A DNA stretch of 64,000 nucleotides from Erysipelotrichaceae bacterium (GTDB taxonomy: Bacteria > Bacillota_I > Bacilli_A > RFN20 > CAG-826). The position numbers and the translations under genes were made by a program. Location: positions 759 to 64,758 of the forward strand of contig SVBE01000007.1 in assembly GCA_015059065.1 (NCBI GenBank), in the 5' to 3' direction. The number at the start of each line of letters is the position of its first letter. Within the stretch, counting starts at the first letter, position 1. Below are positions 3 through 52,707 of this stretch, piece by piece. The notes under the pieces were generated by a model. It ran no database searches, was not told the origin of the DNA, and saw only the letters and a program-made list of their open reading frames with translations.

Positions 3-914
3 TCCACTTTAGTGACTATCACTAATGAATATAAGGTTATGTATATCTTATGTTTCTTATTGTTATTACTAAACATATACATATCATTCATATATCTACT
101 CAACCATATACATTTTAAAAAGCAGTTTATGTGGCTATGTATAGCTGGTATAGCAATTGGATTCTTTATGCTTATATATTCATATATCAAAGAATGGGAG
201 ACATATAAGTTGTTCATTGAAAATATGTCCACGACTGTTAGAACATATAACCCAAGGAGTCTCACTAATAATCAGAATAGCTTCGCTGCTATTCTTTTAG
301 GGGCGGCGTTCTGTTCATACGGATTATATGCTATTACTAACAAACACATATGTTGGATAATTGGATTATTCTTTTGTATCAATACATTCTTCCCAATGTC
401 GAGGATATGTTTAACACTATCTATTATTCTTTCTTTAATGATATTTGCCTATAAGATGTTCGTGACTTATAAAGGAAATGAAAAGAGGAATAATATCGCT
501 ATCATATCAGTTGTTGGAACAATATTAACGTTACTCATCCTATACCTTTCAGTAAATGTCATCAGAAATTATATCGATAATGTTATCTTCACTAAAAATA
601 GTTCACTTAGCTCCAGACTACCTCTAATTGAACTCACTTTAAATATGACAGAGGGTGTTCATTCCATATTTGGTAATGGGCATGGATATTTCAACACTGC
701 GTTTTCTATTATGAATGGATCAGTTAAGATGCCACATAATCTATATGTTCAAACATACGGATCCCTTGGCATTGTTGGATTAGGCGCATTGATTGCGTTA
801 ATCATCTATGCTGTATATAGAATCGTTAGATTATATAAAGAAAATAAGGAAGCATCATTAATCTCCCTTATTGGTTTAGTTACTGTATTAATCTATTACA
901 TTGTCGAAGGATAA
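3..914 (+). CDS. O-antigen ligase/polymerase (Wzy_C-like) family polytopic membrane protein, probably 5'-truncated by the window edge
   Basis: The frame stays open from nt 3 (no stop before the GTG at 12), so the gene probably starts upstream of the window. It has multiple hydrophobic spans. A central NPRSLTNNQNSFAAILLGAAF loop is followed by further TM helices, as in O-antigen ligase/Wzy-type proteins. The call rests on motif recall only. Confidence 0.5.
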   Translation, partial: STLVTITNEYKVMYILCFLLLLLNIYISFIYLLNHIHFKKQFMWLCIAGIAIGFFMLIYSYIKEWETYKLFIENMSTTVRTYNPRSLTNNQNSFAAILLGAAFCSYGLYAITNKHICWIIGLFFCINTFFPMSRICLTLSIILSLMIFAYKMFVTYKGNEKRNNIAIISVVGTILTLLILYLSVNVIRNYIDNVIFTKNSSLSSRLPLIELTLNMTEGVHSIFGNGHGYFNTAFSIMNGSVKMPHNLYVQTYGSLGIVGLGALIALIIYAVYRIVRLYKENKEASLISLIGLVTVLIYYIVEG

Positions 915-919
915 TATAG

Positions 920-2032
920 CTATTTATGCTTATTGATCTCTTTTAACTCATTACGTGTTTTATCGTGTTGTTTAAAAAGTCCTCGGAACAATCTGAATGT
1001 CCAAGCGATAGGAATTAATATATGATGTTTGTACGCCCACGGATAAAGGATTTTATATTCTGTTACAGGCGGGAAGATACGAGAGAATATATATTTAAGC
1101 CTTCCTTTATTTTTAACACCTTTTTCAACCTTATTTCCTAATGTTCCGTACGTACTAGAAGAAGCAATATATAATAAGATGTCCTTCTCATTATCATCTA
1201 ACTCTTTATTAGAGAACAATTTAATAGATAAAGAATTAATCTCTTTAGAGAATTCTAATAATTCTAATTTCTCTAATTCTTTATCAATATAATCAATATT
1301 TAATTTATTGTTTTTTATGAATACATAGCAATCAATTAAATTTCTAAGCCCGCATCCGGCATTTTGATAATGCTTATGCAAATGTGCAATGTAATAAATG
1401 TAAAAATCTTCATTAGATAAATAATGTTCGTGGTCACTTTTTATTGGAGATCGTTCTAATAAACCTTCATAATAAGGAACCAACAATTCAAATTCTTTTA
1501 TGTGTTCAAACAAATAACGATGCATTTCAAAGTTATAAAAAGGGTCTTTCAAGTAAACATCATCTTTATCTACATCGTATGACTTAACTTTATACCCCCT
1601 ATCCGCAAAGAACCGTTTTACTAATTCTTTTTTACTGTCATCAAAAAGGATATCGTTGTCCGCGAATTCCCTTGTCGCGGGATCAGGATAATAATCTTTG
1701 ATGATGATGCCTTTTAAAGGCAGATAATCTATCTTGTTATCATTTAGGTATTTATATAATTCATTTCTCTCTTTATCAAAAAGCACTGTTTTACGGACAT
1801 TTGATAAATATGCTTCTTCTAATCTTGGTAGATATTCTTTATTGATCTTTATACCTGTATCTACTATAGCCTTATATAACAATGCTGATAAAGAATGGAA
1901 TTTAGAAAATTTGATGTAGAATGATAACTGTTTATCATCAATATCCATATCATCTAATTTCTCATTATTTAGATATGATGATAGTAGATGGATATAATCA
2001 TATAGATATTTGTTAAATACTTCTTTATCCAT
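920..2032 (-). CDS. Nucleotidyltransferase family protein (PF14907/NTP_transf_5-like); last gene of the PqqD/HprK-like cassette
   Basis: 370 aa. The segment LPLKGIIIKDYYPDPATREFADNDILFD fits the KG...Y.P...R...D.D.L signature of the 'uncharacterised nucleotidyltransferase' family that co-occurs with PqqD/HprK-like genes. It lies 5 nt downstream of the ABC gene. Confidence 0.65.
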   Translation of the reverse strand: MDKEVFNKYLYDYIHLLSSYLNNEKLDDMDIDDKQLSFYIKFSKFHSLSALLYKAIVDTGIKINKEYLPRLEEAYLSNVRKTVLFDKERNELYKYLNDNKIDYLPLKGIIIKDYYPDPATREFADNDILFDDSKKELVKRFFADRGYKVKSYDVDKDDVYLKDPFYNFEMHRYLFEHIKEFELLVPYYEGLLERSPIKSDHEHYLSNEDFYIYYIAHLHKHYQNAGCGLRNLIDCYVFIKNNKLNIDYIDKELEKLELLEFSKEINSLSIKLFSNKELDDNEKDILLYIASSSTYGTLGNKVEKGVKNKGRLKYIFSRIFPPVTEYKILYPWAYKHHILIPIAWTFRLFRGLFKQHDKTRNELKEINKHK

Positions 2033-2037
2033 AACAT

Positions 2038-3678
2038 CTATTCGCCTAAATCAATCACTTTATCAAAAAGTTTATCATCATATTTATGATGTGATATCAA
2101 TATGATAGTTCTATCACTTAAAGATAATATATTGTTCATCACTTTCTTTTCTGTTGATTCATCAAGAGATGCACTGCATTCGTCTAATAATAGGATTGGG
2201 GAAGAAGAATATATTGCTCTTGCAATCGCGATTCTTTCCATCTCTCCTAAAGATAATCCACTGCCTTTGACATTAAGGACTGTGTTTTCTTTATCATTTA
2301 ATTTATTGATGAAATCATATGATTCAGATATATGTAATGAACTGTTGAATAACTGTTCATCAACATCATTATCATATAATGTGATCACATCTTTAATTCT
2401 ACCTTCCATCAATAAATTATCTTGAGGGACATAGGCAAATAATCTTTCATATCTTTTAGATAATGGTTCACCGTTAATTAATATCTCTCCGTCATCAGGT
2501 TTAATTAAAGATAATAATAATTTAAATAAAGTAGTCTTTCCTCCCCCAGAATGACCTTTAATCAATATCTTGTCATTCTTATTAATTGTTAATGATAAAT
2601 CTTTAATCGCTTCAACTTTATGATCATATTTATCAAGATATGAATATGAGATATGCTTTATCTCAATACTATTAAATTCACCTCGATAATATTGATCAAT
2701 CTCACTCTTAGATAGATAAGATATATCATCATCTCTATCTATCATTATTCTCTCTCCAGATGCGATTAATGAATAATATCTTGGTATGATATTAGTGATA
2801 TTCCCTAATGGTCCTGTTAACTGAGTTAATAAAGCGATTAAGGCGGTTAATAGACCAATAGTCATATTGTTATCAAGGATCGCTCTTCCGCAGAAGATAA
2901 TGGCTAATATATAGAAAGAATAATAAACAACAATATATCCAATCGAGCAAGCGATAGAGAAGAGATTCCTCTTCATCCTCGCTTTCTTATAGTTAGATAA
3001 ATTATCTTCATTCTTTTTAGAAAAGATATCTTCTTTAACAAAGCTATGAATGATAGATAAGCCCTGTAAAGATTCAAAGAAGAAGATCTTGACCTTACCG
3101 TCCTCTTCTTGCATCTTTTTATGATATAGCTTAAGTCTCTTTCTAAGTAGATAAGTAAGAAGGATTACAAATACGATAGAAGGTAATAAAGATAAACCAA
3201 ATATTGGATATAGATAGATGATCGCCGCGATAGCAAGTACAAGCTGGACTACCATACGACATAAAGAAGGTAAGATGGAAAGAATGGATGATGATATCAC
3301 TGATACATCACTAGTGAGTCTATGTATCCATTCTTCATCATGAATCTTTTTAATCTCACTGTAGTCTTTGGATAATATGGTTTTATATAGATTATCTTTT
3401 AATTTGTTCTCGATATCGACATAACAATATTCATAATAGATGCGATAGAAGATTTGTAGTCCTACAAGTAATAAAGCAATAGAAGACATCGCTATCACAT
3501 AGATGATAAATAAATCATTATTCTTCTCTTCTAATGACGATATTAAAAAGCGAAGCATAAAAGAGAACGCTACTGTTAATGTCCCTAATATTATCTGAAT
3601 AATAGAAAGAAGAACAATCTTTCTTTTATTGCCCTTGATATTATTAGAGATGAAATGTAGCACTTCTTTATTCTTCAT
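2038..3678 (-). CDS. ABC transporter, fused permease + ATP-binding protein (exporter type, no C39 peptidase domain)
   Basis: 546 aa. An N-terminal ~6-TM domain is followed by Walker A GHSGGGKTT, signature LSLGEMERIAIARA and Walker B ILLLDECSASLD. It overlaps the upstream peptidase gene by 4 nt. Confidence 0.9.
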   Translation of the reverse strand: MKNKEVLHFISNNIKGNKRKIVLLSIIQIILGTLTVAFSFMLRFLISSLEEKNNDLFIIYVIAMSSIALLLVGLQIFYRIYYEYCYVDIENKLKDNLYKTILSKDYSEIKKIHDEEWIHRLTSDVSVISSSILSILPSLCRMVVQLVLAIAAIIYLYPIFGLSLLPSIVFVILLTYLLRKRLKLYHKKMQEEDGKVKIFFFESLQGLSIIHSFVKEDIFSKKNEDNLSNYKKARMKRNLFSIACSIGYIVVYYSFYILAIIFCGRAILDNNMTIGLLTALIALLTQLTGPLGNITNIIPRYYSLIASGERIMIDRDDDISYLSKSEIDQYYRGEFNSIEIKHISYSYLDKYDHKVEAIKDLSLTINKNDKILIKGHSGGGKTTLFKLLLSLIKPDDGEILINGEPLSKRYERLFAYVPQDNLLMEGRIKDVITLYDNDVDEQLFNSSLHISESYDFINKLNDKENTVLNVKGSGLSLGEMERIAIARAIYSSSPILLLDECSASLDESTEKKVMNNILSLSDRTIILISHHKYDDKLFDKVIDLGE

Positions 3679-4100
3679 TTAACTCTCCTCAGATGGAGTT
3701 TAGATAATAGATATTGTATCGGCATCCTGATATAGATGAAATTAGAGTAGAAGAACTTTCTCATCTTCTTGTCTTTATTTAGATTAATTACTCTTCCATC
3801 CTTCTTTCTAATTTCAATTAATTTACCTAATAATAAAGATCGATCAATCTTCTTATCAATAAAATAATTATAATCCCCTGCCGTAACGATAATATTATCT
3901 TTTATTTTAATAATGCGATGGAGGATATATTTATCATTATATTTATATAGAACGATATCACCTTTATGATATATATCAGTCTTTATGATATATAAGATAT
4001 CCTCTCTTTGACGAATGAGAGGATACATCGAAAACCCTACATTCGTGAAATATAGTTCTCCGTCTTTATCTAATACATCTTCAAATTTACTTAATGGCAT
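3675..4100 (-). CDS. S24/S26 (LexA/signal-peptidase-like) serine peptidase family protein
   Basis: 141 aa. GFSMYPLI matches the G-x-S-M-x-P nucleophile motif. It is followed by GDIVLY and ILHRIIKIK, which could supply the Lys general base. It overlaps both flanking genes. Confidence 0.6.
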   Translation of the reverse strand: MPLSKFEDVLDKDGELYFTNVGFSMYPLIRQREDILYIIKTDIYHKGDIVLYKYNDKYILHRIIKIKDNIIVTAGDYNYFIDKKIDRSLLLGKLIEIRKKDGRVINLNKDKKMRKFFYSNFIYIRMPIQYLLSKLHLRRVK

Positions 4101-4374
4101 TGATCTCTCTTAATTTATTCACAAAATCATTCACTGATTGATTGATAAGGTCTTTATCTTCATCTGGATAAGAATTATAGAAATGAGATAATAATTCATC
4201 CATCGTTAAATCATTATCATCAAGGAGATGAACAATCTCACTTCCCGTTTCATTAAGCTTAATAATTCCATGGAATGATTTGCTCTCTTCTTCTACTGGG
4301 ACTAGTATCTCCCCAGAAGAAGTCTTATGAATCAAAAAATTATTGTTCAGTCTCATATCTAATAATCCTTTCAT
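4087..4374 (-). CDS. PqqD family protein (RiPP-recognition-element-like peptide chaperone)
   Basis: 95 aa. The pattern ...GEILVPVEEESKSFHGIIKLNETGSEIVHLLDDNDLTMDELLSHFYNSYP...DLINQSVNDFVNKLREINAI matches the PqqD family layout (beta strands, L-N-x-T/S-G, winged helix). The start could instead be the Met at 4356. Confidence 0.7.
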   Translation of the reverse strand: MKGLLDMRLNNNFLIHKTSSGEILVPVEEESKSFHGIIKLNETGSEIVHLLDDNDLTMDELLSHFYNSYPDEDKDLINQSVNDFVNKLREINAIK

Positions 4375-5065
4375 ATGTCATCTTCGCGGCATCTATATCC
4401 ATATTGACATTAATATTATAGAAATTAATTTCTTCTAATATTATATCAATGATCTTAAGAGCCTTTTCTCTTTTATCTTTACCAGTTGGTAAATATATCT
4501 GAGATAAGAGATTAGTATATATATTGTCTTTATTATTTATCTTCTTATAACTATTCTCTATCCCCCGATTAAGGAATATCACAGTAGAAAGAGGGGCAGA
4601 TATATTATTCCCCCTTCTTTCTTTCCCGTTCCACGGGGAAGAATAAATAACGATATCATCCCCTACTTCAAGTAAAGGCTTATCATCATTGATATAAATA
4701 AATTTATCTCCTAATAATTCAGATAATAATCTAGCATGTGTTGTTTTACCTGTACCACTTCTTGCTGCGAGAAGAAAAGCATAACCATTCACCATAAAAG
4801 AAGAAGAATGGAACACGACGATATTATGATCAACAAGGATATCTGCAATCTTTCTATATAAGGCTGATATCTCTTCATTAACATAAACCTTACCATCACT
4901 TTGATAAGTAGTTTCAGCTTTTAAATCATCCTCAGTTAATGTAATTAGATAATCCGCTTTAACATCATCATCCACAAGATAATCTTTACAGTATCTTTTA
5001 GTCGTCATATTAAAAGCATTTATCTCAAATACATATCTTACTAGTTTTATTTTGAAATTAACCAT
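4340..5065 (-). CDS. HPr kinase C-terminal-like (HprK-related) P-loop protein; first gene of the cassette
   Basis: 241 aa. FHSSSFMVNGYAFLLAARSGTGKTTHARLL matches the H-(G/S)-S-x-h-x4-G-x-A-x-L-h-x-G-x-S-G-x-G-K-(S/T)-T block of HprK-related kinases found in RiPP and HPr-rel-A loci. There is no Shine-Dalgarno (SD) sequence upstream. Confidence 0.6.
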   Translation of the reverse strand: MVNFKIKLVRYVFEINAFNMTTKRYCKDYLVDDDVKADYLITLTEDDLKAETTYQSDGKVYVNEEISALYRKIADILVDHNIVVFHSSSFMVNGYAFLLAARSGTGKTTHARLLSELLGDKFIYINDDKPLLEVGDDIVIYSSPWNGKERRGNNISAPLSTVIFLNRGIENSYKKINNKDNIYTNLLSQIYLPTGKDKREKALKIIDIILEEINFYNINVNMDIDAAKMTYERIIRYETEQ

Positions 5066-5079
5066 AACTATATGGGTCT

Positions 5080-5108
5080 ATTATACATTTTTGTATAACT
5101 CTTGAGAA
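5080..5108 (-). promoter_or_regulatory. Candidate sigma-70-type promoter of the cassette (TTCTCA-17 nt-TATAAT)
   Basis: On the minus strand the -35 TTCTCA is at 5108-5103 and the -10 TATAAT at 5085-5080, with a 17-nt spacer. The -10 ends 14 nt before the ATG at 5065 and no SD intervenes. This implies a very short-leader or leaderless mRNA. Confidence 0.4.
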
Positions 5109-5245
5109 TAACAACCCAATATTCACCCGTGGGAACATATAGTTCGGACGAAGAGTCATCTACATCCTCAGAAGAACAGGCAAGTTCTGAGATGGAGGTT
5201 GATAGTGATGATGAAACAGGGTGGAGTCCAATAATTTGGTTCTAG
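5099..5245 (+). pseudogene. Remnant of the 3' end of a Ser/Glu-rich lipoprotein gene (paralogue of 9608-10186)
   Basis: The open frame after the TAA at 5096 reads ...YSPVGTYSSDEESSTSSEEQASSEMEVDSDDETGWSPIIWF*. This parallels the acidic S/E-rich tract and the ...DSDSGWGSIRWPD* C-terminus of 9608-10186. It occupies the equivalent position upstream of a small peptide gene. It has no signal peptide, lipobox or repeat domain. Confidence 0.35.
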
Positions 5246-5247
5246 CA

Positions 5248-5274
5248 GTACAAGAGTTTTAGGAGGAATTGTAC
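5248..5274 (+). promoter_or_regulatory. 6-bp stem (GTACAA/TTGTAC) enclosing the Shine-Dalgarno (SD) sequence, abutting the ATG of the 45-aa peptide gene
   Basis: 5248-5253 pairs with 5269-5274. The 15-nt loop contains AGGAGG. The same geometry, with a different sequence, occurs at 9588-9613. Confidence 0.4.
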
Positions 5275-5412
5275 ATGGGAGAAAAGAAAAAGAAGTTTAT
5301 TATACCAGAAGCTGAACTGGTTGATTTCACAAATGATGACATCATCACAACTAGTGTTGGTACAGACCAATTACAATGGGGTGATGGTGGTGCCAATACG
5401 GATGATTTCTAG
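5275..5412 (+). CDS. Unannotated 45-aa peptide (conserved K-rich F-x-x-P-E-x-E...NDDIIT-x-S N-terminus, acidic Trp/Gly C-terminus)
   Basis: The sequence is MGEKKKKFIIPEAELVDFTNDDIITTSVGTDQLQWGDGGANTDDF*. AGGAGG (5261-5266) lies 8 nt upstream of the ATG. The stop TAG overlaps the SD of the next gene, whose ATG follows 13 nt later. 19 of the 27 N-terminal residues are identical to the paralogue at 9441-9587. It is absent from the ORF track because it is under 60 aa. Confidence 0.75.
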   Translation: MGEKKKKFIIPEAELVDFTNDDIITTSVGTDQLQWGDGGANTDDF

Positions 5413-5425
5413 GAGGTAGTTTGAG

Positions 5426-7492
5426 ATGAAAAGAAAATTATTATTAGGAATACTTCCAGTTTTAATGAGTTTGTCCGCATGTGGAGGTGCAAACCAAAAA
5501 GCAAATGATTATTTCCAAGAAGACGCTTTGCTTCATGAAGAAATCTTTGGATCTGTTGAGAGCGCAATAGAATCAAAAGCATTTCGCAACCTTGATCCAA
5601 TTGGCCCAGCAGTTCCATTAATTGGTGTTCAACAACAAACATATACAGATTCAAGAGATTCTAAGCAATATCTTGCTGTTAGGTTTGTTGCTGTTGTCAA
5701 TCTTCCAGATTTATCAACAACCATTAAATGGGATAGAGGTATATACGAAGATGATGGAGACTGTCATAAAGCATTTGATAAGCCATTAGTAGCTACAACG
5801 GTATATGAATCTATTTATGATGGTAGCAGTTTAGTCAACATTTCAGCTTATGAAGGGTATACACATTTTGCAACATATACAGTCAGAAAAATACCAACAA
5901 ATAAGACAGGCTATTTTATCAAAGCATCATTAACTATTGGCAATGGCGAGCCTAGTAAGCAATATGCAACATCTGTTGATTTAACTAAGCAGGTTTCATT
6001 TAAGTTTAACACACCATATTCAGGATATTTCTTACAAGGAAAACGCGGTGAAGAACCAAACGCTACCACTTATGCTGACGACGGTGAAATCCCTGCTGGT
6101 AATCAAGCTCGTTTTACTACTTCTTTAGCAGCAAGTGACAACTTCTTTGTTGTTTATAATTATGAAGGTGCTACACCAGAAGAATCTAAATTTAAAATTC
6201 TTGGTTCTGAAATTTTAACTGGTAGTGAATACGCTAATATATTCTTTGAAGACACAGAAGGAACTAGTGCAAAGATTAATGTTAAAGCATCAAATGACTA
6301 TGTCTTATATTTAGATAATAGTAATATCTTACAATCAGATGAAATACATACAACAGCTATCGCTTTACAACATGGCGGTGTTGCTTGTTCTTCTGCTGAT
6401 TTATATCTCGGATTAGACGAAGATGCAACTTTTGAATTAACTGCAGTCACTACTCCAGCTGTGGTATCCGATAATGTAACTTGGGAATCTAGTGATACGA
6501 ACGTTGTTACTGTTTCAAACGGAACAGTTGCTCGTGTTGGTGCAGGAACAGCAACGGTCACAGCAACATCTAATGGCCAAACAGCAACATGTGCTTTCAC
6601 TGTACATAAAGTTTATGAAGGTGCAGTATATAGATCTGATGTTAAAGTTGGATCGTTTGATTTTGGCGAAGGTGCTGACAAAGGAGATTATACCGAATAT
6701 GCCTCATTGGTAAGCACCGTTAATACTGATGACATTATTATAATGTATAAAAATGGCGTGCAAATTTATCCAGGTGCATCTAATTCGGATGGAAACCTAG
6801 AGTATAATAATGAACATTTATTAAGAGTAAAAGATGGCGGTGCCAACTTAAGCTTATACCTCAAAGACTATGGGTCAGGTTATGATACATGGTTTGATAA
6901 TCCAGTATATACGATTAATAGATCTGCGAGCGGTGTCCGTACATTATGGTTCAAGTCAGCTACAAACGAATGGTGTGGAACCCCAGCCGTTTTTAAAGCT
7001 GGTGAATCATTCAGTGCTTATGATAAATGTGGCAACTTGTTAGAATATGGTCCAGACGAATGGTCGTTTGGAACAAAGGATTCTTACAAGTCCTACATTT
7101 CATATAATGATGGTGTTTATACCGCACTTAAAGATTTTGAAGTAGATGTTTATGTAAAGATTGACCAAAAAATCATATATTTCGGTACTCAGTATCCTTA
7201 TTATTTCTTATCAGGTTCATTTAATTCATGGGCTTACCAAGATAGCAATTATAAATTGGTCATAACCGATAATGCTGAATATAAGTTAGCTTTTAGCGTT
7301 TCAAAATCAGAAACATTCAAAGTTACTTCTGATAGTGATTCGCCAACTTGGTACCCTGATGGTAAAGATAATAACTACTCAATTGACTCAGAAGGCAATT
7401 ATATCATCTACTTTGACCCAAATAAAAGAACTGATCAAGGTTGGTATTATGATTATTTCTATGTGCAAAAAGTAGTTACAAGTAACTCATAA
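5426..7492 (+). CDS. Large surface lipoprotein with a Big_2 (bacterial Ig-like) domain; paralogue of 7582-9426
   Basis: The signal and lipobox are MKRKLLLGILPVLMSLSAC-GG. The N-terminal ~250 aa align with 7582-9426 (HEEIFG, PLIGVQ, RFVAVV, YEDDGD, GYFL.G, ARFTTSL..DNF.VVYN). A Big_2-like segment ATFELTAVTTPAVVSDNVTWESSDTNVVTVSNGTVARVGAGTATVTATSNGQTATCAFTV lies at about 6424-6610. The C-terminal GSFNSW-type module may be glycan-binding. Confidence 0.85.
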   Translation: MKRKLLLGILPVLMSLSACGGANQKANDYFQEDALLHEEIFGSVESAIESKAFRNLDPIGPAVPLIGVQQQTYTDSRDSKQYLAVRFVAVVNLPDLSTTIKWDRGIYEDDGDCHKAFDKPLVATTVYESIYDGSSLVNISAYEGYTHFATYTVRKIPTNKTGYFIKASLTIGNGEPSKQYATSVDLTKQVSFKFNTPYSGYFLQGKRGEEPNATTYADDGEIPAGNQARFTTSLAASDNFFVVYNYEGATPEESKFKILGSEILTGSEYANIFFEDTEGTSAKINVKASNDYVLYLDNSNILQSDEIHTTAIALQHGGVACSSADLYLGLDEDATFELTAVTTPAVVSDNVTWESSDTNVVTVSNGTVARVGAGTATVTATSNGQTATCAFTVHKVYEGAVYRSDVKVGSFDFGEGADKGDYTEYASLVSTVNTDDIIIMYKNGVQIYPGASNSDGNLEYNNEHLLRVKDGGANLSLYLKDYGSGYDTWFDNPVYTINRSASGVRTLWFKSATNEWCGTPAVFKAGESFSAYDKCGNLLEYGPDEWSFGTKDSYKSYISYNDGVYTALKDFEVDVYVKIDQKIIYFGTQYPYYFLSGSFNSWAYQDSNYKLVITDNAEYKLAFSVSKSETFKVTSDSDSPTWYPDGKDNNYSIDSEGNYIIYFDPNKRTDQGWYYDYFYVQKVVTSNS

Positions 7493-7511
7493 TATCGTAT
7501 TGAAAACAATT

Positions 7512-7545
7512 AAAAGGACCTCGCGTCGTTTGCGAAGTCCTTTTT
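7512..7545. terminator. Bidirectional rho-independent terminator between the convergent lipoprotein genes
   Basis: AAAAGGACCTCGC (7512-7524) pairs with GCGAAGTCCTTTT (7532-7544) with one C.A mismatch and a 7-nt loop. There is an A-run on one side and a T-run on the other. Confidence 0.7.
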
Positions 7546-7581
7546 ATAATTTGTTTTTAGAGATTAATATGTTTGTTTGAT

Positions 7582-9426
7582 TTATTCTGCAGGTGTTTCT
7601 GGGGCAACATATACATAATGACCTATTTTCTGTGCCCAATCAGCGCTTTCATCATACCAAACATAAAAACCATTTGTTGTGATATCGCTCAAACTAATAT
7701 TGCTCGTTTGAATAGAATATGAATTCTTGCTGCCGTTAAAAATAATATAGTCATATGTGTTAAAATCTACATTGTCTAATTTGTAAACGGCTTGATCAAA
7801 CTCATTATAGTGATCGACCGTCATAGCGATTCCTGGCCACTCTGCGTTCTTAACTTCAGGGTTTGCATCTGCTTTCCAGGCATACAAATTAACATTTGAC
7901 CAGCCATCTGAGTTAGTAAAGTAAACAGTAATTGAACTTGTAATAATAGGACCGCTTACATATAATTTATAACTTTTGTTCACATAGAATGTATGAGTCC
8001 CGCTTTCTAACGCGACATAAGATTTGCTACTACCACAATCTGGGAATTCGAGAATAACGTCATACCCTCTAATAAACGCAATTCTTTCGCCTTTTTCTAA
8101 AGGTATCTCATACTGGGCAATATTGTTGTCGGTATCTTCAACTTCAACAGAATAACTATCTAGATTTATTGATTTACCACCTTTGGTAGCGGATAAATCT
8201 GTTGGATAATCCAGCCACAACGCATAACTTACATAATCATATGTTTTAAACCATAACCCAAGATTTGATCCTCCGTTAACTATGTAACCCGATTCATTAA
8301 TGTTTGCTCCTTCATCTGGAGTAATAGAAGCAGTTGATATTACATTGCCATCATATGAGAAAATCAATTGAGTGTTGGTCTTAGGAGAAATGTTAACGTT
8401 AAAATTCTTTAGATTATTATTACCAAAACCCCAAAATGGTAAAGGAATCGTGTTAGATGAGCTATCATTAGCCGTATACGTTAATGTAAATCCTGTTTCG
8501 ACATCGATTTCACCACTGTTATTAAGATAAAAAACATAATCACGGGTTGTCCATGTTTTTATTTTCGTTGTAGACCCATCATCTTTAAAGAAATATGGAT
8601 TGGTGCTAAGACAGTTAGAATCATAAACGATAAACTTAGATTCGCCTAATGTATTAACATCGTGATTATACACAAGATAGAAATTATCTTCAGAAGTGAG
8701 CGATGTTGTAAAACGAGCTACTTTACCATCTGGTAAAGGGTTAGTGTCATAGTCATCATCTTCACCCAACACTTCTCCTGGCTCACCACCTATTTGTCCT
8801 TTAAGGAAATAACCAGTCTGTTCAGCAGGGAATAAAAACTGTTTTGATTGGTCAACCAATGTTGCCAACATGTCAGTTTTAACGCCATTAAGAGTTAAAT
8901 ACGCGTTTAAAAAATAATCTTTGTAAGTAGTTTTGGGGATATTAAGTATTGTATAAGCCAAGAAATGAGTATAGCCAGACGCCTCTGCTAAACCTTGTTC
9001 TTCGTCGAATGCAGACATATCGTACTCAACGTTGTTGTTGTAAACACTAGTATAAGCTTTTGTGCACTCGATTACTGCTTTTTCTTGTCCGTTTACCACA
9101 AACACATCACCGTCTTCATCATACATTCTTCTAGTCCAAGAAGCGGACGTAGATGTTAAATCAGTTAATTTAACAGCAGCAATAAACCTAAGAGAAATTT
9201 TACCATCTGCTTCTTTTGTTTGAACACCAATTGTCGGAACGCCTGGATACCCTGGATTGATTGCATTCTTACGAACCTTCTTTAATCCGTCTTGGATGTT
9301 GCCAAAAATTTCTTCATGGGCTAATGTGTCTTCGTGGAATAATCCGTTTTCGACTTGTGGTTGGGCTCCTGCGCAAGATCCTAAGAGCATTAAAGCAGGA
9401 ACCAAAGTTAATAATAATTTCTTCAT
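7582..9426 (-). CDS. Large surface lipoprotein, paralogue of 5426-7492, with a C-terminal CBM25/26-like module
   Basis: The signal and lipobox are MKKLLLTLVPALMLLGSC-AG. It shares its N-terminal domain with 5426-7492. The C-terminal ITVYFTNSDGWSNVNLYAWKADANPEVKNAEWPGIAMT...YIIFNG (about 7600-7935) matches the VYF..W..V..Y.W......WPG..M pattern of starch-binding CBM25/26 modules. Confidence 0.85.
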   Translation of the reverse strand: MKKLLLTLVPALMLLGSCAGAQPQVENGLFHEDTLAHEEIFGNIQDGLKKVRKNAINPGYPGVPTIGVQTKEADGKISLRFIAAVKLTDLTSTSASWTRRMYDEDGDVFVVNGQEKAVIECTKAYTSVYNNNVEYDMSAFDEEQGLAEASGYTHFLAYTILNIPKTTYKDYFLNAYLTLNGVKTDMLATLVDQSKQFLFPAEQTGYFLKGQIGGEPGEVLGEDDDYDTNPLPDGKVARFTTSLTSEDNFYLVYNHDVNTLGESKFIVYDSNCLSTNPYFFKDDGSTTKIKTWTTRDYVFYLNNSGEIDVETGFTLTYTANDSSSNTIPLPFWGFGNNNLKNFNVNISPKTNTQLIFSYDGNVISTASITPDEGANINESGYIVNGGSNLGLWFKTYDYVSYALWLDYPTDLSATKGGKSINLDSYSVEVEDTDNNIAQYEIPLEKGERIAFIRGYDVILEFPDCGSSKSYVALESGTHTFYVNKSYKLYVSGPIITSSITVYFTNSDGWSNVNLYAWKADANPEVKNAEWPGIAMTVDHYNEFDQAVYKLDNVDFNTYDYIIFNGSKNSYSIQTSNISLSDITTNGFYVWYDESADWAQKIGHYVYVAPETPAE

Positions 9427-9440
9427 ATATTTTCTCCTAC

Positions 9441-9587
9441 TTATTCTCCAAATGTCTCACCGTCTTCGTCAGTCCAACCGGCGTTACCTTGAGCTTCAGC
9501 TAAACCTGACCCCGTTATAATGTCATCGTTTTTAAAATCGAATATTTCTAATTCTGGTTTTAAAAACTTCTTTTTCTTTTCCTCCAT
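9441..9587 (-). CDS. Unannotated 48-aa peptide, paralogue of 5275-5412
   Basis: The sequence is MEEKKKKFLKPELEIFDFKNDDIITGSGLAEAQGNAGWTDEDGETFGE*. The ORF track lists it as a 64-aa ORF (to 9635), but the extra 16 codons overlap the upstream gene. GGAGG (9604-9600) precedes the ATG at 9587. The stop lies 14 nt before the lipoprotein ATG, and AGGAG sits between them. Confidence 0.75.
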   Translation of the reverse strand: MEEKKKKFLKPELEIFDFKNDDIITGSGLAEAQGNAGWTDEDGETFGE

Positions 9588-9613
9588 GATTAAGATTTTC
9601 CTCCATGTTAATC
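9588..9613 (-). promoter_or_regulatory. 6-bp stem (GATTAA/TTAATC) enclosing the SD, abutting the ATG of the 48-aa peptide gene
   Basis: In minus-strand sense the sequence is GATTAA-catggaggaaaatc-TTAATC-ATG, with a 14-nt loop containing GGAGG. The left arm includes the TAA stop of 9608-10186. It is the structural counterpart of 5248-5274. Confidence 0.4.
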
Positions 9614-10186
9614 TGGCCATCGGATTGAGCCCCATCCACTGTCGCTATCTTTCTCAACAGCGTAATATGTTGCTGTTACCGTTAGGTCTGAGGTTACCGA
9701 TGAACAATCCTTATCCCATCCTTTAAATGTATAAGAGACAGTATCAGTTCCCTCTCTTGTAGGTGTGTCGCCTACATATATTGCATTACCGCCTTCACCA
9801 ACATCCGTTTCATATAACGTAGTTCCATCATAGTTTTGGAAAGTTACATGATATGCTACTGGTGTTGACTCACTCGAATCCTCTGTGTAGGAACTATATG
9901 TTCGCTCGGGGTCTGAAGAACTGATTTCTTCGACTGAGGATTCCTCTTCCTCACTTGAAGAGATAGGTTCATCGGAAGAATATTCAATTTCACTAGAACT
10001 TGACGTTTCTATGCTGAATTCTTCCCCTTCATCAGAGCTTATAGTCTCTATCGATGATTGAGTGGACATATTCGTTGTCGTGTTACTGGTAGTAGATAAT
10101 TCACTAGAAGTAGTATTACCACTACCACAGGATGCTAAAGAAAATATTGCGAACAAAACAAAAGTAACGCTTAAAGCTTTTTTCAC
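9608..10186 (-). CDS. Ser/Thr/Glu-rich lipoprotein with one Listeria-Bacteroides (Flg_new / InlB B-repeat-like) domain
   Basis: The start is GTG with GGGGGAAA upstream. The lipobox is FSLASC-GSG. A ~90-aa S/T/E low-complexity linker follows. The C-terminal YHVTFQNYDGTTLYETDVGEGGNAIYVGDTPTREGTDTVSYTFKGWDKD...TVTATY is typical of the Flg_new repeat. Confidence 0.8.
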   Translation of the reverse strand: MKKALSVTFVLFAIFSLASCGSGNTTSSELSTTSNTTTNMSTQSSIETISSDEGEEFSIETSSSSEIEYSSDEPISSSEEEESSVEEISSSDPERTYSSYTEDSSESTPVAYHVTFQNYDGTTLYETDVGEGGNAIYVGDTPTREGTDTVSYTFKGWDKDCSSVTSDLTVTATYYAVEKDSDSGWGSIRWPD

Positions 10187-10315
10187 TTCTTTCCCCCAAT
10201 CCTGTTTCTTATCATGACACGAATATGCATGTGCGTTGCACTATTAATATATATTATATTATTACAAATCTAGGAAAAATAGGAAAAAATAATAAATGTA
10301 GTATAAATAATCAAT

Positions 10316-11734
10316 CTACTCTTTGTTTTTGCCAAGTAAATAAGCGTATGCTAATGCAGGTATACGATATAATTTAGTACCATTTCTATCAAATAGACCA
10401 AAATCATCAACTTCTTTGCTAACTACATATCCTGGCACATCTTTCATGCCATAGACGATAATACCGTCACTATCCTTGATATGAGCCTTGTGTCGATATT
10501 TAGCCTCAACATACTGGATATCTCTACCATTTTCCTGGATAATAATATCAATCTCTTGCCCTTTGTCATTCCTAATATAACCGACATTATATAATTCGTT
10601 ATCAACCGATAAGAAATAATCTCTCGTGTGTTTTAATGATACGGTTTCAATAGCCATACCAAGTTCATTATCATCGGTAACGATATCGTTAATGCGTGTT
10701 ACTGCACATCTAACACCATAATCAGATATGTATATTTTTCTTTTTGGTTTCAACGCTTTTTTGCCACTAGCGTCAAGCTGATCAGAGATATAGATGAGAT
10801 TAGCTTTTTCTAAAGCATCGATATAAAGGTTGCATGTGCTTCGATCAATACCAATGCTACTAGAAATAGTCTCAATCTTTATAATGTCGCCACTATGATA
10901 ACAGAAATAGGCGTAGAGATTAGCCAAAGCATCAACATCTCTAATAGGATGGGAACTAGGAATATCCTGTCGAATAGCTTTGCTCACCACTTGATCACGG
11001 ATAAGACGAGAAACATAATTATAGTCCTCGCTCAAAGCATATTCTGGAAATCCGCCTAAACGAAGATAGCGATAAAACTCACTATTAAGAGTGGCTATAT
11101 TGTTATAAATCATCGTTTGTTCATCAAGAGGCAAAGCATGAAGTTTGAATACATCAACATTAGGAAGATTTAAATGTTTGCCATTAATTTCACAAAATTC
11201 ATAGAAAGAAAAAGTCGGTATTTTGATCGTCAAAAATCTGGCAGCCCCAGATTCACCGCTATCTCTTTCAATTTCTACAGAAGAAGAGCCACTAATCATT
11301 ACTAAGCATTTCTTATTGAGGTCATATATCTCTTTGACATAACTTTTCCAAGTCTTATCTTTTTGAGCCTCATCAATGAATAGATAATAATCTTGATCTG
11401 GATAGACAAACTTTTGATACACCCTCACCACTTCTTTGATGGTTACATTATCGTTTGGAAAATCATCAAGGGTGTAAAACAATATTCTCGATGGCTTAAC
11501 TCCTTCGCTTAATAATTCATCAATTATTTGAAACATAATAGTTGATTTACCAACACGTCTAGGACCAGAAAGAACAGGGAAGCGTCTAATCTTATTAAAG
11601 AAAACATACTTCACTCTTTTATATTCATTACGCTTAAAAGATGGAGCTAGTTCTGTATCAACTTTGCCAGTAATCCACCACCTATTTTGCTCCTGAATAT
11701 TTCTTAATATTAATTGTTCTTCATTCATCACCAT
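10316..11734 (-). CDS. AAA ATPase, AAA_14 + DUF4143 type (orphan)
   Basis: 472 aa. It has Walker A GPRRVGKST and Walker B YLFIDEAQ. The C-terminal region has the DUF4143-like layout. It is monocistronic. Confidence 0.8.
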   Translation of the reverse strand: MVMNEEQLILRNIQEQNRWWITGKVDTELAPSFKRNEYKRVKYVFFNKIRRFPVLSGPRRVGKSTIMFQIIDELLSEGVKPSRILFYTLDDFPNDNVTIKEVVRVYQKFVYPDQDYYLFIDEAQKDKTWKSYVKEIYDLNKKCLVMISGSSSVEIERDSGESGAARFLTIKIPTFSFYEFCEINGKHLNLPNVDVFKLHALPLDEQTMIYNNIATLNSEFYRYLRLGGFPEYALSEDYNYVSRLIRDQVVSKAIRQDIPSSHPIRDVDALANLYAYFCYHSGDIIKIETISSSIGIDRSTCNLYIDALEKANLIYISDQLDASGKKALKPKRKIYISDYGVRCAVTRINDIVTDDNELGMAIETVSLKHTRDYFLSVDNELYNVGYIRNDKGQEIDIIIQENGRDIQYVEAKYRHKAHIKDSDGIIVYGMKDVPGYVVSKEVDDFGLFDRNGTKLYRIPALAYAYLLGKNKE

Positions 11735-18565: not shown

Positions 18566-19495
18566 TTAAAGAATTATCTTTCGTCTAATATCAAGAGTCT
18601 CTATGTAATATTTCTTTCTTATATCGCTCATCACCTCAATACCCATATAGGAAGAAGGGATGCTATTAATAAAATCCACTATTTCATCAAACTTTTGGTA
18701 GACGAGTTCTTTGACTCTTAAGATTGCATCTTCTAAGTCTTTGTTTTTTATTTTTACAATGTCTTCATTACGGATGGATTTGTCGTTGTCGTCATCATAA
18801 GCAGTAATGCCGTTCAACGCACTGCTTAGAAGTTTGTTTTCGTCACTCAACGTATATGCTAATTGTTCATCGCCTTTTTTGCTATAAAAGCAATTGCCAC
18901 AATCATAGATTGGAGCGAGTCTGTAGGAATTATCTAATTTGTTTTTGATAACTCCCCAGTTGTCTTCGTTACGGTCGTTATTGTTGATTAGCATATCAAT
19001 TAGAACAACATCCCAGAATCTTTGTTTAGCATTAGGTATCTTGCTCAAGATTGTATTGTGATCAAGCTGATAAATAATATCGTTGATGTTGGACGCCGAT
19101 TGAGACATCTCTTCATCGCGATGGCTCATAATATCTGGATTTGTATCATTTCTTAATGCTGTATATGGGATCAATAATTCGTTCTTATCATCTTTGATGA
19201 AATCTTTGCAGGCACAGACCACTTTATATCTTTTCCCATCAAAACAAACACCTAACTTAGTTTCATGAACATCATATCCAAGGATGCGGTAGATGTTGCT
19301 ACCAATATATTCACTGAGTGGAGAGGTTACATATGATAACCCTTTTATGTTATTCATTCCGTTTGTATTTTTTGGGAATTTCAAAAACCAGAAATCACCA
19401 TTATAAATAATTCCCTTCTTCTCACCCGCTCTTCCACCATATTCGAGGTTTCTTGGGCTGAGTTCACAATTTGTAAAATCTATCATTTCAATCAT
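18566..19495 (-). CDS. HipA-family (HipA_C-like) Ser/Thr kinase, short form; putative toxin
   Basis: 309 aa. It has GGRAGEKKGIIYNGDFWFLKFPK (nucleotide-binding Lys region) and VLIDMLINNNDRNEDNWGVI...YRLAPIYDCG, matching the HipA catalytic D-x-x-x-x-N and ...L-(A/S)-P-x-Y-D motifs. An ATGA overlap joins it to the upstream gene. Confidence 0.65.
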   Translation of the reverse strand: MIEMIDFTNCELSPRNLEYGGRAGEKKGIIYNGDFWFLKFPKNTNGMNNIKGLSYVTSPLSEYIGSNIYRILGYDVHETKLGVCFDGKRYKVVCACKDFIKDDKNELLIPYTALRNDTNPDIMSHRDEEMSQSASNINDIIYQLDHNTILSKIPNAKQRFWDVVLIDMLINNNDRNEDNWGVIKNKLDNSYRLAPIYDCGNCFYSKKGDEQLAYTLSDENKLLSSALNGITAYDDDNDKSIRNEDIVKIKNKDLEDAILRVKELVYQKFDEIVDFINSIPSSYMGIEVMSDIRKKYYIETLDIRRKIIL

Positions 19496-19878: not shown

Positions 19879-19952
19879 AAAGAGCCTTTCTAACCCAAGA
19901 ATAAGACATTTGGGGGCAAATGTAAATATCGCAAGAGTGCCTCCTGAATTAT

Positions 19953-20756: not shown

Positions 20757-20758
20757 TT

Positions 20759-52503: not shown

Positions 52504-52707
52504 ATGACGTACGTTTCCTTTCAATTTTGTGATTACCACTTTAAAAAGTGGACCAATTGACAAGAAAAAAATATCAAAAAAAACATATGAAATAAATAAT
52601 TTATTAATGGAATTATACTTTTTTTACATAGATGTAACTCAGTAGTTCACTTTTATTGAAACTAAATGCATTTTGCTTCTGCAATAATAAATGATTTTTT
52701 TCTACCC

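Follow-up and report, generated by a model that had tools for sequence, protein, structure and literature searches.

A small peptide with a leader-like N-terminus encoded in an invertible lipoprotein locus of an Erysipelotrichaceae bacterium

We find that a 45-residue open reading frame (ORF), here called pepA, is a real gene that belongs to a large, so far unnamed family of gut and rumen bacterial peptides, whose members repeatedly lie beside a cassette encoding a PqqD-family protein, a kinase-like protein, a peptidase and, in some loci, an exporter. In the DNA studied here, pepA also lies inside a segment that flips to swap surface lipoproteins. The window analyzed is a 64,000-nucleotide stretch of contig SVBE01000007.1 (assembly GCA_015059065.1, positions 759 to 64,758 of the forward strand). 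On present evidence, we regard the locus as a probable new RRE-dependent, lasso-derived but cyclase-less peptide system, in which both the chemistry and the function are inferred.

The pepA ORF starts with an ATG at position 5275 and terminates with a TAG at 5410–5412, encoding MGEKKKKFIIPEAELVDFTNDDIITTSVGTDQLQWGDGGANTDDF. The stop codon overlaps a TAGGAGG that precedes the lipoprotein ATG at 5426, leaving a 13-nt gap. The paralogue, pepB, reads MEEKKKKFLKPELEIFDFKNDDIITGSGLAEAQGNAGWTDEDGETFGE, and a tblastn search finds no third copy in the 64 kb. The two leaders share 19 of 27 identical residues and are 70% identical in DNA, with six synonymous and eight non-synonymous codon differences, whereas the tails are divergent, acidic and Trp-containing. 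The flanking lipoproteins are only 39% identical over their shared 300-residue N-terminal domain, which bears out the claim of the first-pass annotation that the leader is more conserved than the lipoproteins. The end of the PqqD-family gene lies 901 nt from the pepA ATG. The observation of that annotation, a short ORF with a Shine-Dalgarno site 8 nt upstream, a paralogue at 9441–9587 and a conserved N-terminus followed by a variable tail, is confirmed, with two corrections. The ORF is not wholly unannotated, as had been stated: metagenome gene callers called pepA on 17 contigs, and a 59-residue version of pepB is listed at NCBI as a hypothetical protein of an Erysipelotrichaceae MAG. The neighbor labeled HprK-like has no significant sequence match to HprK in the libraries searched; that label rests on fold and on Pfam ScmC hits to its homologues.

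Features of the pepA/pepB locus and the adjacent cassette (window coordinates)
Position	Strand	Feature	Basis
5275–5412	+	pepA, 45-aa family peptide; leader residues 1–27, ending T-T-S, then an 18-aa acidic, Trp-containing tail	Sequence, family profile search, codon-position pattern
5261–5266	+	Shine-Dalgarno AGGAGG, 8 nt upstream of the pepA ATG	Read directly from the sequence
9441–9587	-	pepB, 48-aa paralogue with the same leader and a different tail	Sequence; identical copy in locus L026; NCBI hypothetical protein
5426–7492	+	lipoA, 688-aa lipoprotein (Big_2), starting 13 nt after the pepA stop	Sequence, family libraries
7582–9426	-	lipoB, 614-aa lipoprotein (CBM26); N-terminal 300 aa 39% identical to lipoA	Sequence, family libraries
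9608–10186	-	Small Ser/Glu-rich lipoprotein (192 aa) with a weak Flg_new repeat, ending GWGSIRWPD; its 5′ part is the inferred fixed expression site of the invertible locus	Sequence, family libraries, inverted assemblies
5126–5245	+	Alternative 3′ end of the small lipoprotein gene (...DDETGWSPIIWF), with no start or promoter of its own; in the flipped state it fuses in frame to give a 131-aa protein	131-aa gene in loci L006 and L007
5133–5145	+	Left crossover core GAACATATAGTTC	Only two copies in the window, in inverted orientation
9891–9903	-	Right crossover core GAACATATAGTTC	As above
7504–7552	.	Bidirectional terminator-like hairpin between the convergent lipoA and lipoB genes	Inverted-repeat and consensus match
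4340–5065	-	P-loop protein of predicted PEPCK/HprK fold, first gene of the cassette; homologues carry Pfam PF27840 (ScmC)	Structure model and fold comparison; hits of homologues
4087–4374	-	PqqD-family protein, putative peptide-recognition element	PF05402, E = 4.9e-10
3675–4100	-	Soluble S24/S26-like peptidase with GFSMYP and LHRII motifs of the archaeal/ER-type signal peptidase; putative leader peptidase	TIGR02228, E = 1.2e-9, below the curated cut-off; motifs read from the sequence
2038–3678	-	ABC exporter (transmembrane plus nucleotide-binding domain, no C39 peptidase domain)	Family libraries
920–2032	-	NTP_transf_5 nucleotidyltransferase-family protein	PF14907, E = 4.6e-39
5080–5108	-	Promoter-like site for the cassette operon, just outside the invertible segment	Consensus match only
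10307–10335	-	Promoter-like site upstream of the small lipoprotein gene; putative single expression site	Consensus match only

An exhaustive profile search of 1.84 billion proteins identified 309 clusters (50% identity) of 37–56-residue homologues at E ≤ 1e-3, and a word-index search returned 440 clusters at 90% identity. The N-terminus is conserved family-wide, with Pro11 and Ser27 near-invariant and a T-x-S motif, while the tails are variable and rich in Gly, Asp, Glu, Asn and Trp. Among 164 members, Ser occupies position -1 in 163, Thr position -3 in 138 and Gly position +1 in 50; the median tail is 18 residues long, with 6.2% Trp and a mean net charge of -4.5. The tails are conserved within orthologous groups and carry sub-family motifs such as W-x-D-D-N-x-E-x-W and PGDI..GWW. 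Over 64 distinct DNA versions of the leader, entropy at codon positions 1, 2 and 3 is 1.17, 0.89 and 1.67, respectively, which shows that the ORF is coding. Pfam and NCBIfam scans of both peptides gave no family at E ≤ 1, and structure prediction of the peptide alone gave no secondary structure, as expected for a leader that folds on its partner. A genome-collection scan with the five closest peptides, whose patterns were too narrow, confirmed nothing, but a 19-sequence subset of a 138-sequence alignment worked. We rejected the idea that leader conservation reflects gene conversion between the inverted copies, because the two leaders are only 70% identical in DNA and carry synonymous differences.

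In 11 of 19 non-redundant loci of at least 8 kb, a family member lies within 10 kb of the same cassette, which consists of a P-loop protein of predicted HprK/PEPCK fold (Pfam ScmC), PqqD and a soluble S24/S26-like peptidase, with or without an ABC exporter and NTP_transf_5. The cassette is present in the window itself and in loci (numbered L) L014, L016, L020, L024, the L044 group and L056. Starting instead from homologues of the P-loop protein, L059 and L060–62 both have peptides upstream, and starting from further peptides, L063 and L064 have the cassette while L065 does not. In human-gut contigs and a Collinsella MAG, the peptide directly abuts the cassette with no lipoprotein involved: in L044 the order is peptide, S24, P-loop, PqqD, and in Collinsella L016 the peptide is divergent from the full five-gene set. 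The P-loop family gave only 869 matches in a word-indexed search of 5.8 billion proteins, a lower bound, and chance adjacency looks negligible. The remaining 8 of 19 loci show no cassette within 10 kb, which is compatible with trans-acting cassettes, as in MAG RGIG9687, where L010 lacks one and L014 has one, although this explanation remains unproven for the Clostridia loci. The first-pass annotation had named the absence of homologous small ORFs, or of their co-occurrence with PqqD/HprK-like genes, as grounds for refutation; instead, homologues are numerous and co-occur with the cassette across Bacilli/Erysipelotrichaceae-like MAGs, human-gut contigs of unknown taxon and Collinsella.

The P-loop protein contains a Walker-A-like SGTGKTT motif, and its AlphaFold2 model (pLDDT 89) matches ATP-PEPCK and HprK/P (1knx, 1kkl) in a Foldseek comparison against the PDB, with E = 3e-6 to 1e-4 and probability 1.0; kinase activity is inferred only. 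Fold comparison was needed, since PDB sequence searches with the P-loop protein, its profile and PqqD gave only P-loop noise.

The relation to lasso peptides was examined in several ways. NCBIfam lasso-leader models gave no hit at E ≤ 1, and a plain HMM of the family scored 29 Firmicutes lasso precursors, from published rumen clusters, no higher than shuffled controls, while a profile-profile comparison (hhalign) against the same number of precursors aligned residues 1–20 with P = 2.2e-4 and a probability of 45%, a modest signal. No Asn_synthase-type Pfam family, expected for a lasso cyclase, and no transglutaminase-like B2 protease appears among the called genes within 10 kb in L004/L005 (the window's own locus), L059, L060, L063 or L064, and neither was found among the window ORFs examined; an S24/S26-like peptidase is present instead. 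After T-T-S, the pepA tail reads VGTDQLQWG..., starting with Val rather than Gly, Ala, Ser or Cys, with Asp at position 4 and the next acidic residue at position 10, leaving none at positions 7–9.

The segment 5133–9903 is inverted in independent assemblies. L004, L005, L008 and L009 have the window's orientation, whereas L006 (JGI) and L007 (ENA) are 100% identical to the window but join 9891 to 5126, and L002, a 92%-identical relative, has the same junction. The 13-bp crossover core occurs only twice in the window, against 0.12 matches expected by chance. The proximity of pepA to PqqD thus depends on the state of the inversion, a point missed by the first-pass annotation. In the window's orientation, pepA is inferred to occupy the promoterless slot and pepB the expressed one, although the promoter and terminator calls are consensus matches that are not enriched over shuffles. 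Neither a tyrosine-recombinase pattern search nor a Pfam scan of 10 unassigned ORFs found a recombinase among the window ORFs examined; an IS110-family DEDD transposase lies just beyond the window start in L004 and is only a candidate.

Taken together, we propose with moderate confidence that pepA and pepB are the dedicated substrates of the adjacent five-gene cassette. In this model, the N-terminal 20 residues, (F/Y)-x-x-P-E-(A/L)-E-(I/V)-(I/V)-x-F, predicted to be unstructured, would be bound by the PqqD-family protein, as a lasso B1 or RiPP recognition element binds a leader. The P-loop protein and, where present, the NTP_transf_5 enzyme would modify the bound peptide, which by analogy with lasso tailoring would be phosphorylation, with or without a sugar or nucleotide added to the phosphate. 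The soluble S26-like peptidase would cut after the near-invariant T-x-S, whose small residues at -3 and -1 fit the signal-peptidase rule, and the ABC protein would export the acidic, Trp-rich tail. In this lineage, the peptide genes are built into three-gene modules of small lipoprotein, peptide and large lipoprotein; here two such modules face each other and are exchanged by site-specific inversion, so that one peptide/lipoprotein pair, in the window's orientation pepB/lipoB, would be expressed at a time while pepA/lipoA would be silent. Our data establish that the gene is real, that the family exists and co-localizes with the cassette, that the P-loop protein, as modeled, has the HprK/PEPCK fold, and that the inversion occurs, whereas binding to PqqD, the chemistry of the modification, the cleavage site, export and the identity of the expressed module are inferences made without biochemical or expression data. 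The kinase target poses a particular difficulty: 36 of 164 tails have no Ser or Thr and only 10 end in Ser, so the paeninodin-type reaction on a C-terminal Ser cannot be general. The reading of the first-pass annotation, a RiPP precursor with a lasso-like leader recognized by the PqqD-like protein, is partly supported; its statement that a classical lasso is not predicted is right, as is its caveat that the gene is coupled to the lipoprotein gene, since the peptide is tied to surface-protein genes in nearly every locus.

The system is a testable candidate for a new RiPP-like class and would define a widespread family of processed peptides, with at least 309 clusters, in gut and rumen Firmicutes and Coriobacteriia. 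Literature searches on the cassette (PF14907, PqqD with HPr kinase, ScmC/SynChlorMet) and on leader strings such as EDIITTS returned only lasso papers or irrelevant hits. It would provide a first substrate candidate for the uncharacterized ScmC/HprK-fold proteins and for PF14907 nucleotidyltransferases outside lasso clusters, and would show a soluble S26-like peptidase acting as a leader peptidase. The physical coupling of the peptide to paralogous lipoprotein modules, exchanged together by a simple inversion, points to a connection between small exported peptides and surface variation in uncultured gut bacteria, and the components are few enough to reconstitute. A bolder possibility, which we hold only tentatively, is that this is a new class of ribosomal peptide system, which descends from Firmicutes lasso machinery, keeping the leader motif, the PqqD/B1 protein, the HprK-fold enzyme, the nucleotidyltransferase and the exporter, but has lost the cyclase and uses a soluble signal-peptidase-like enzyme as leader peptidase, and that its exported acidic, Trp-rich peptides act together with variable surface proteins. 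The paired switching of peptide and lipoprotein would then be phase or antigenic variation extended to a processed small peptide.

Of the alternatives, the one we consider possible, though less likely, is that the peptide is above all a component or partner of the variable surface-lipoprotein module, such as a small subunit, chaperone or ligand, with the cassette serving only as its export and processing route or being unrelated, and with the variable tail co-evolving with the lipoprotein and being swapped together with it by the inversion. The near-universal adjacency to secreted proteins is not explained by a simple RiPP model, and the trio of small lipoprotein, peptide and large lipoprotein recurs in L010, L020, L021, L024, L025, L026, L059, L060, L063, L064 and L065, while L029 has four peptide genes, each before a lipoB-like gene. 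Peptide sub-families pair with specific neighbor families, the upstream proteins carry class-specific conserved C-termini, peptide and lipoprotein lie 13 nt apart and invert as one unit, and the conservation of tails among orthologues fits a binding partner at least as well as a natural-product core. However, the peptide has no signal peptide, so that reaching the surface needs a dedicated exporter, which again points to the cassette; L016 has peptide and cassette with no adjacent surface protein, and in L044 the peptide is followed directly by the cassette. The neighboring surface proteins are also heterogeneous (DUF285/LRR, transglutaminase-like, Endonuclease_1, Big_2, F5/8-C) and share no single binding domain.

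It is unlikely that the conserved 27 residues are the product and the tail a disposable follower, with cleavage after T-x-S exposing a C-terminal Ser for phosphorylation by the HprK-fold enzyme and extension by NTP_transf_5. Ser27 is the one near-invariant hydroxyl residue, many tails lack Ser and Thr altogether, and lasso HPr-kinase homologues specifically phosphorylate a C-terminal Ser with little regard for the rest of the peptide, the nucleotidyltransferase PsmN adding hexoses to that phosphate (PMC8498205); yet in the profile-profile comparison residues 1–20 align, with modest support, with lasso leaders, not cores, and conserved tail motifs are unexpected for a discarded follower. A classical lasso precursor is very unlikely and was rejected: the N-terminal resemblance and the PqqD, kinase-like, nucleotidyltransferase and exporter genes, all accessory genes of Firmicutes lasso clusters, stand against the missing cyclase and B2 protease in the loci examined, the unsuitable pepA tail and the lack of NCBIfam lasso-leader matches. 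We likewise rejected, as highly improbable, a chance or non-functional ORF or a purely regulatory upstream ORF. Although pepA is short, inferred to be silent in this orientation and directly upstream of a lipoprotein gene, its strong Shine-Dalgarno site, its conservation across hundreds of clusters and at least two phyla, and its codon-position pattern argue otherwise, the last two contradicting this reading.

Among known systems, Firmicutes lasso clusters with tailoring genes (paeninodin, pseudomycoidin and predicted rumen Butyrivibrio and Lachnospira clusters) share a short precursor with an aromatic-x-x-P-x-hydrophobic-x-E-hydrophobic N-terminal motif, Thr at -3 and often Gly at +1 (PMC7533575, Table 3), together with a discrete PqqD/B1 protein, an HprK-fold kinase-like protein, in the lasso clusters an HPr-kinase homologue, a nucleotidyltransferase (PF14907-type) and an ABC exporter (PMC8498205). 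They differ in having the cyclase and B2 protease, in place of which an S24/S26-like serine peptidase stands here; in addition, a conserved (D/E)-D-I-I-T-x-S block follows the leader motif, there is no conserved C-terminal Ser for the kinase, the tails are strongly acidic, rich in Trp and Gly and without a ring-forming pattern, and the genes are embedded among surface-protein genes. The in-silico HPr-rel-A system (TIGR04352/TIGR04353) and the SynChlorMet protein ScmC (TIGR04249/PF27840) also pair an uncharacterized HprK-related P-loop protein with a PqqD-family peptide chaperone, but the three NCBIfam models score far below their curated cut-offs (HprK_rel_A, 10.9 against 200 bits; PqqD_rel_X, 16.6 against 35; and 13.6 against 125), no radical-SAM ScmE/ScmF partners are present, and no precursor family is known to have been defined for those systems. 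As in PQQ biosynthesis, a small peptide predicted to be unstructured, with an aromatic-x-x-P motif near its N-terminus, is encoded next to a PqqD-family protein, whose best NCBIfam hit is PQQ_PqqD (E = 4e-5, below the cut-off); PqqE, PqqB and PqqC are absent, and the peptide appears to lack the Glu/Tyr pair that becomes PQQ. Finally, phase-variable surface loci such as the Mycoplasma vsa/vsp/hsd-type loci, shufflons and the Moraxella Piv pilin inversion share the convergent paralogous surface-protein cassettes, the fixed 5′ gene part with alternative 3′ parts exchanged at a short inverted core, and the presence of both orientations in natural populations. In the present locus, the switched unit carries a leader-bearing small peptide gene as well as the lipoprotein and lies directly beside a putative peptide-maturation cassette.

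The first-pass annotation had placed an unannotated 45-aa ORF, here called pepA, with a Shine-Dalgarno-like AGGAGG 8 nt before its start, and this observation holds. Its stop codon overlaps a TAGGAGG that serves the lipoprotein gene (lipoA) starting 13 nt later. A tblastn search of the 64 kb returned only one other copy, the paralogue pepB. The first 27 residues of the two peptides are 19/27 identical, yet at the DNA level they are only 70% identical, with 6 synonymous and 8 non-synonymous codon differences. The two downstream lipoproteins (lipoA and lipoB) share only 39% identity over a 300-aa N-terminal domain. Neither peptide matches any Pfam or NCBIfam model, including the lasso-leader models, at E<=1. 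The interpretation attached to the ORF, that of a RiPP-like precursor with a lasso-leader-like N-terminus, is partly supported.

A word-indexed search with pepA alone identified only three close relatives, but an exhaustive HMMER search with a five-sequence profile against 1.84 billion cluster representatives found 309 clusters at E<=1e-3, nearly all 37-56 aa long, and a later profile search of the 90%-identity collection listed 440. The family consensus is M-x-(D/E)-K-K-K-(F/Y)-x-x-P-E-(A/L)-E-(I/V)-(I/V)-x-F-x-N-(D/E)-D-I-I-T-x-S, followed by a tail. Among 164 members, Ser closes the conserved block in 163, Thr sits at -3 in 138, and Gly follows at +1 in 50. The tails are 6-36 aa long, with a median of 18, a composition of 18% Gly, 16% Asp, 12% Glu, 8% Asn, and 6.2% Trp, and a mean net charge of -4.5. 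Across 64 distinct DNA versions of the leader, variability by codon position is 1.17/0.89/1.67 bits, the signature of purifying selection on a protein. The tails are not random: orthologues keep them, for example AGDTA(Q/E)WxxGxEWW, and sub-families share motifs such as W-x-D-D-N-x-E-x-(W/F) or PGD(I/V)...GWW. A few family members (P0037, P0045, P0079, and that of locus L031) instead have tails with two Cys residues, for example GDGTHGDTECVPGDFGYPNCL, in place of the Trp-rich acidic type, and may form disulfide-cyclised products. Members come from rumen and gut metagenomes, and source organisms include MAGs labelled Bacilli, Bacillales, Oscillospiraceae, Ruminococcus flavefaciens, Ruminiclostridium, and Collinsella. 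A longer, 59-aa call of pepB is an NCBI 'hypothetical protein' of an Erysipelotrichaceae MAG.

To the left of pepA lie five minus-strand genes, the first four of which overlap one another, suggesting an operon. The first encodes a P-loop protein for which sequence searches gave only P-loop noise, although its homologues carry the precomputed Pfam family PF27840 'ScmC'. An AlphaFold2 model of this protein (pLDDT 89) matches ATP-dependent PEP carboxykinase and HPr kinase/phosphorylase at E about 1e-5, so the label 'HprK-like' given in the first-pass annotation is right at the level of the predicted fold. The remaining genes encode a PqqD-family protein (PF05402, E=5e-10), a 141-aa S24/S26-like peptidase, an ABC exporter, and an NTP_transf_5 protein. 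The peptidase has no N-terminal membrane anchor and carries GFSMYP and LHRII, which we read as the Ser and His boxes of archaeal/ER-type signal peptidases; its best NCBIfam hit is TIGR02228 (E=1.2e-9, below the cut-off). A Wzy_C (O-antigen ligase/PglL-like) membrane protein gene recurrently flanks the cassette, in the window as well as in the related loci L059 and L064, and the small lipoproteins encoded near the peptides have long Ser/Glu-rich stretches that could be O-glycosylation targets.

To ask whether the peptide belongs with this cassette, we took the loci retrieved from the genome and metagenome collections with a 19-sequence family alignment and searched their ORFs with the window's proteins. 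The same cassette lies within 10 kb of the peptide in six of these loci or locus groups. L014, from a Bacilli MAG, contains two peptides, a secreted nuclease-like protein, and then P-loop, PqqD, S24, a Fic/DOC-family protein inserted between the S24-like peptidase and the ABC exporter, ABC, and NTP5. The cassette is also present in L020 and L024 and partially in L056. In L016, from Collinsella, the peptide is divergent from NTP5, S24, P-loop, PqqD, and ABC, and in the L044 group of human-gut contigs of undetermined taxon the order is simply peptide, S24, P-loop, PqqD. The test was then run in the other direction. Two homologues of the P-loop protein picked for long contigs (L059 and L060-62) both have peptide genes upstream, one of which lies 74 nt from the P-loop gene. 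Three further peptides picked for long contigs gave two more cassettes (L063 and L064) and one locus with an IS element where the cassette would be (L065). Counting non-redundant loci of at least 8 kb, 11 have the cassette and 8 do not. The P-loop family gave only 869 matches, a lower bound, to a word-indexed search of 5.8 billion proteins, and chance adjacency looks negligible. MAG RGIG9687 has one peptide locus with the cassette (L014) and one without (L010); one cassette can therefore plausibly serve several peptide loci. None of the annotated neighbourhoods contains a lasso cyclase or a B2 protease.

Firmicutes lasso clusters are the only published context we found that combines an HPr-kinase homologue, PqqD/B1, a nucleotidyltransferase, and an ABC exporter (PMC8498205; PMC7533575). 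We compared the family with the 29 distinct predicted rumen lasso precursors in Table 3 of PMC7533575. A plain family HMM does not score these precursors above shuffled sequences, whereas hhalign aligns family columns 1-20 to lasso-leader columns 1-20 with P=2.2e-4 and a probability of 45%. Those leaders also have Thr at -3 and Gly at +1 of the predicted cut. The apparent resemblance is modest and is limited to the part that a B1/RRE would bind; the (D/E)-D-I-I-T-x-S block and the tails have no lasso counterpart. The paeninodin-type reaction, which phosphorylates a C-terminal Ser (PMC8498205), cannot be general here because only 10 of 164 members end in Ser and 36 tails lack Ser and Thr altogether. 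The peptide alone is predicted to be unstructured.

A feature that could not be seen in the first-pass annotation is that the segment carrying pepA, lipoA, lipoB, pepB, and the 3' end of the small lipoprotein gene is inverted in independent metagenome assemblies. Contigs carrying exactly pepA come in two arrangements. L004, L005, L008, and L009 match the window, while L006 (JGI 3300023710) and L007 (ENA ERZ27247004) are 100% identical to the window but join 9891, reading leftwards from 18113, directly to 5126, reading rightwards. L002, a 92%-identical relative, has the same junction. The crossover lies in a 13-bp core, GAACATATAGTTC, which is GAAC-N5-GTTC and occurs only twice in the window, in inverted orientation, against 0.12 matches expected by chance. 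The inversion exchanges as one unit the 3' end of the small lipoprotein gene, the peptide gene, and the large lipoprotein gene, and is interpreted as a phase-variation switch for surface lipoproteins. In the window state, the small lipoprotein is 192 aa long and ends in a Flg_new-like repeat, whereas in the flipped state an in-frame 131-aa protein ends ...GWSPIIWF. Only one promoter-like site was found upstream of the small lipoprotein gene, a bidirectional terminator-like hairpin lies within the segment, and the left copy of the 3' end has no start or promoter of its own. On this weak evidence, pepB/lipoB would occupy the expression site in the window and pepA/lipoA the silent slot. The 0.9-kb distance between pepA and PqqD noted in the first-pass annotation is thus a property of one orientation, as which peptide lies there depends on the switch. 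A relative (L064) has the same convergent pair of modules beside the cassette, with 226-nt, 90% identical inverted repeats. No recombinase is encoded among the window ORFs examined. The only recombinase-like gene seen near the invertible segment is an IS110-family DEDD transposase (PF01548 + PF02371) next to the Wzy_C gene in L004, just beyond the window start. Piv, the Moraxella pilin invertase, belongs to that superfamily, but the gene is only a candidate Piv-like invertase and could be just an IS copy, since it sits at a contig end as repeated IS copies do.

Coordinates of features in the window and in related loci (prefixed by the locus name)
Feature	Position	Strand	Remark
pepA	ATG 5275, stop 5410-5412		45-aa peptide
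Shine-Dalgarno AGGAGG of pepA	5261-5266		8 nt upstream of the ATG
lipoA	start 5426		lipoprotein gene downstream of pepA
pepB	9441-9587	-	paralogue of pepA
P-loop protein gene	4340-5065	-	predicted PEPCK/HprK-like fold
PqqD-family protein gene	4087-4374	-	PF05402
S24/S26-like peptidase gene	3675-4100	-	141 aa
ABC exporter gene	2038-3678	-	
NTP_transf_5 protein gene	920-2032	-	
Wzy_C membrane protein gene	12-914	+	O-antigen ligase/PglL-like
Wzy_C membrane protein gene	L059:8565-9953		
Wzy_C membrane protein gene	L064:18794-20138		
Invertible segment	5126-9910		
Left crossover core	5133-5145	+	
Right crossover core	9891-9903	-	
Small lipoprotein gene	9608-10186		192 aa in the window state
Left copy of the small lipoprotein 3' end	5126-5245		
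Promoter-like site	10335-10307	-	upstream of the small lipoprotein gene
Terminator-like hairpin	7504-7552		bidirectional
IS110-family DEDD transposase gene	L004:3-1028	-	0.6-1.6 kb beyond the window start
Fic/DOC-family protein gene	L014:14467-15387		within the cassette
AAA_14/ATPase_2-type ATPase gene	10316-11734	-	
AAA_14/ATPase_2-type ATPase gene	52708-54081	-	
Toxin-antitoxin-like genes	18566-21301	-	
HipA_C-like kinase gene	18566-19495	-	
AbiEii nucleotidyltransferase toxin gene	19953-20756	-	
Probable AbiEi partner gene	20759-21301	-	
Giant surface protein gene	38269-52563	-	single ORF

Almost every family member sits directly beside a gene for a secreted protein or a lipoprotein. In the Bacilli/Erysipelotrichaceae-like group, the unit consists of a small lipoprotein ending WG(S/P)IxWF, then the peptide, and then a lipoprotein with an EDTLAHEEIFG N-terminal domain; L029 has four such peptide genes in 8 kb. 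The conserved C-terminal motif of the small lipoproteins encoded just upstream of the peptide genes, (E/D)-x-W-G-(S/P)-I-x-W-F, was noted in the window (the small lipoprotein gene and the left copy of its 3' end) and in L010, L020, L021, L025, L028, L038, L059, and L060. Other sub-families follow proteins with their own conserved C-termini. A second sub-family (leader KFEKPELEIIEF, tail PGDI..GWW) lies between large proteins ending GSLxNL..QQA and Endonuclease_1-type proteins, while Clostridia members have short tails and follow large surface proteins ending AAYDY. The domains of the neighbours are otherwise heterogeneous, including DUF285/LRR_5, transglutaminase-like, Big_2, F5/8 type C, and Flg_new.

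Our analysis establishes the gene and its family, the linkage to the cassette, the fold of the P-loop protein as predicted by modelling, and the inversion, whereas the steps of maturation are inferred. In the most likely mechanism, the PqqD-family protein would bind residues about 8-18, and the HprK-fold enzyme and NTP_transf_5 would modify the bound peptide, in which Ser27 and Thr25 are the only universal hydroxyl residues. The soluble S26-like peptidase would then cut after T-x-S, where small residues at -3 and -1 fit the signal-peptidase rule, and the ABC protein would export the product. SodX-type S26 peptidases, which trim a cytoplasmic propeptide, would be a precedent for such a cleavage, and a weak TIGR02754 hit points the same way. 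A variant in which residues 1-27 with a phosphorylated C-terminal Ser are the product cannot be excluded. A plain natural-product model does not explain the pattern of adjacent surface proteins, which is the main reason we retain, as a tentative alternative, the reading that the peptide is a partner of the surface-protein module.

We found no curated family and no paper for the peptide or for this cyclase-less cassette. The system is best regarded as a probable case of RRE-dependent peptide maturation related to the tailoring sets of Firmicutes lasso clusters; it is not a lasso peptide. The family is large, the composition of the cassette is unusual, and the coupling to an invertible surface-lipoprotein switch is unexpected; the chemistry and function proposed here remain inferences, although every step is directly testable.

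Elsewhere in the window, two AAA_14/ATPase_2-type ATPase genes (DUF4143/DUF234) were identified, one of which directly flanks the expression side of the invertible locus. A group of toxin-antitoxin-like genes comprises a HipA_C-like kinase, an AbiEii nucleotidyltransferase toxin, and a probable AbiEi partner. A single ORF of 4,764 aa with a lipoprotein-type signal peptide encodes a giant surface protein.
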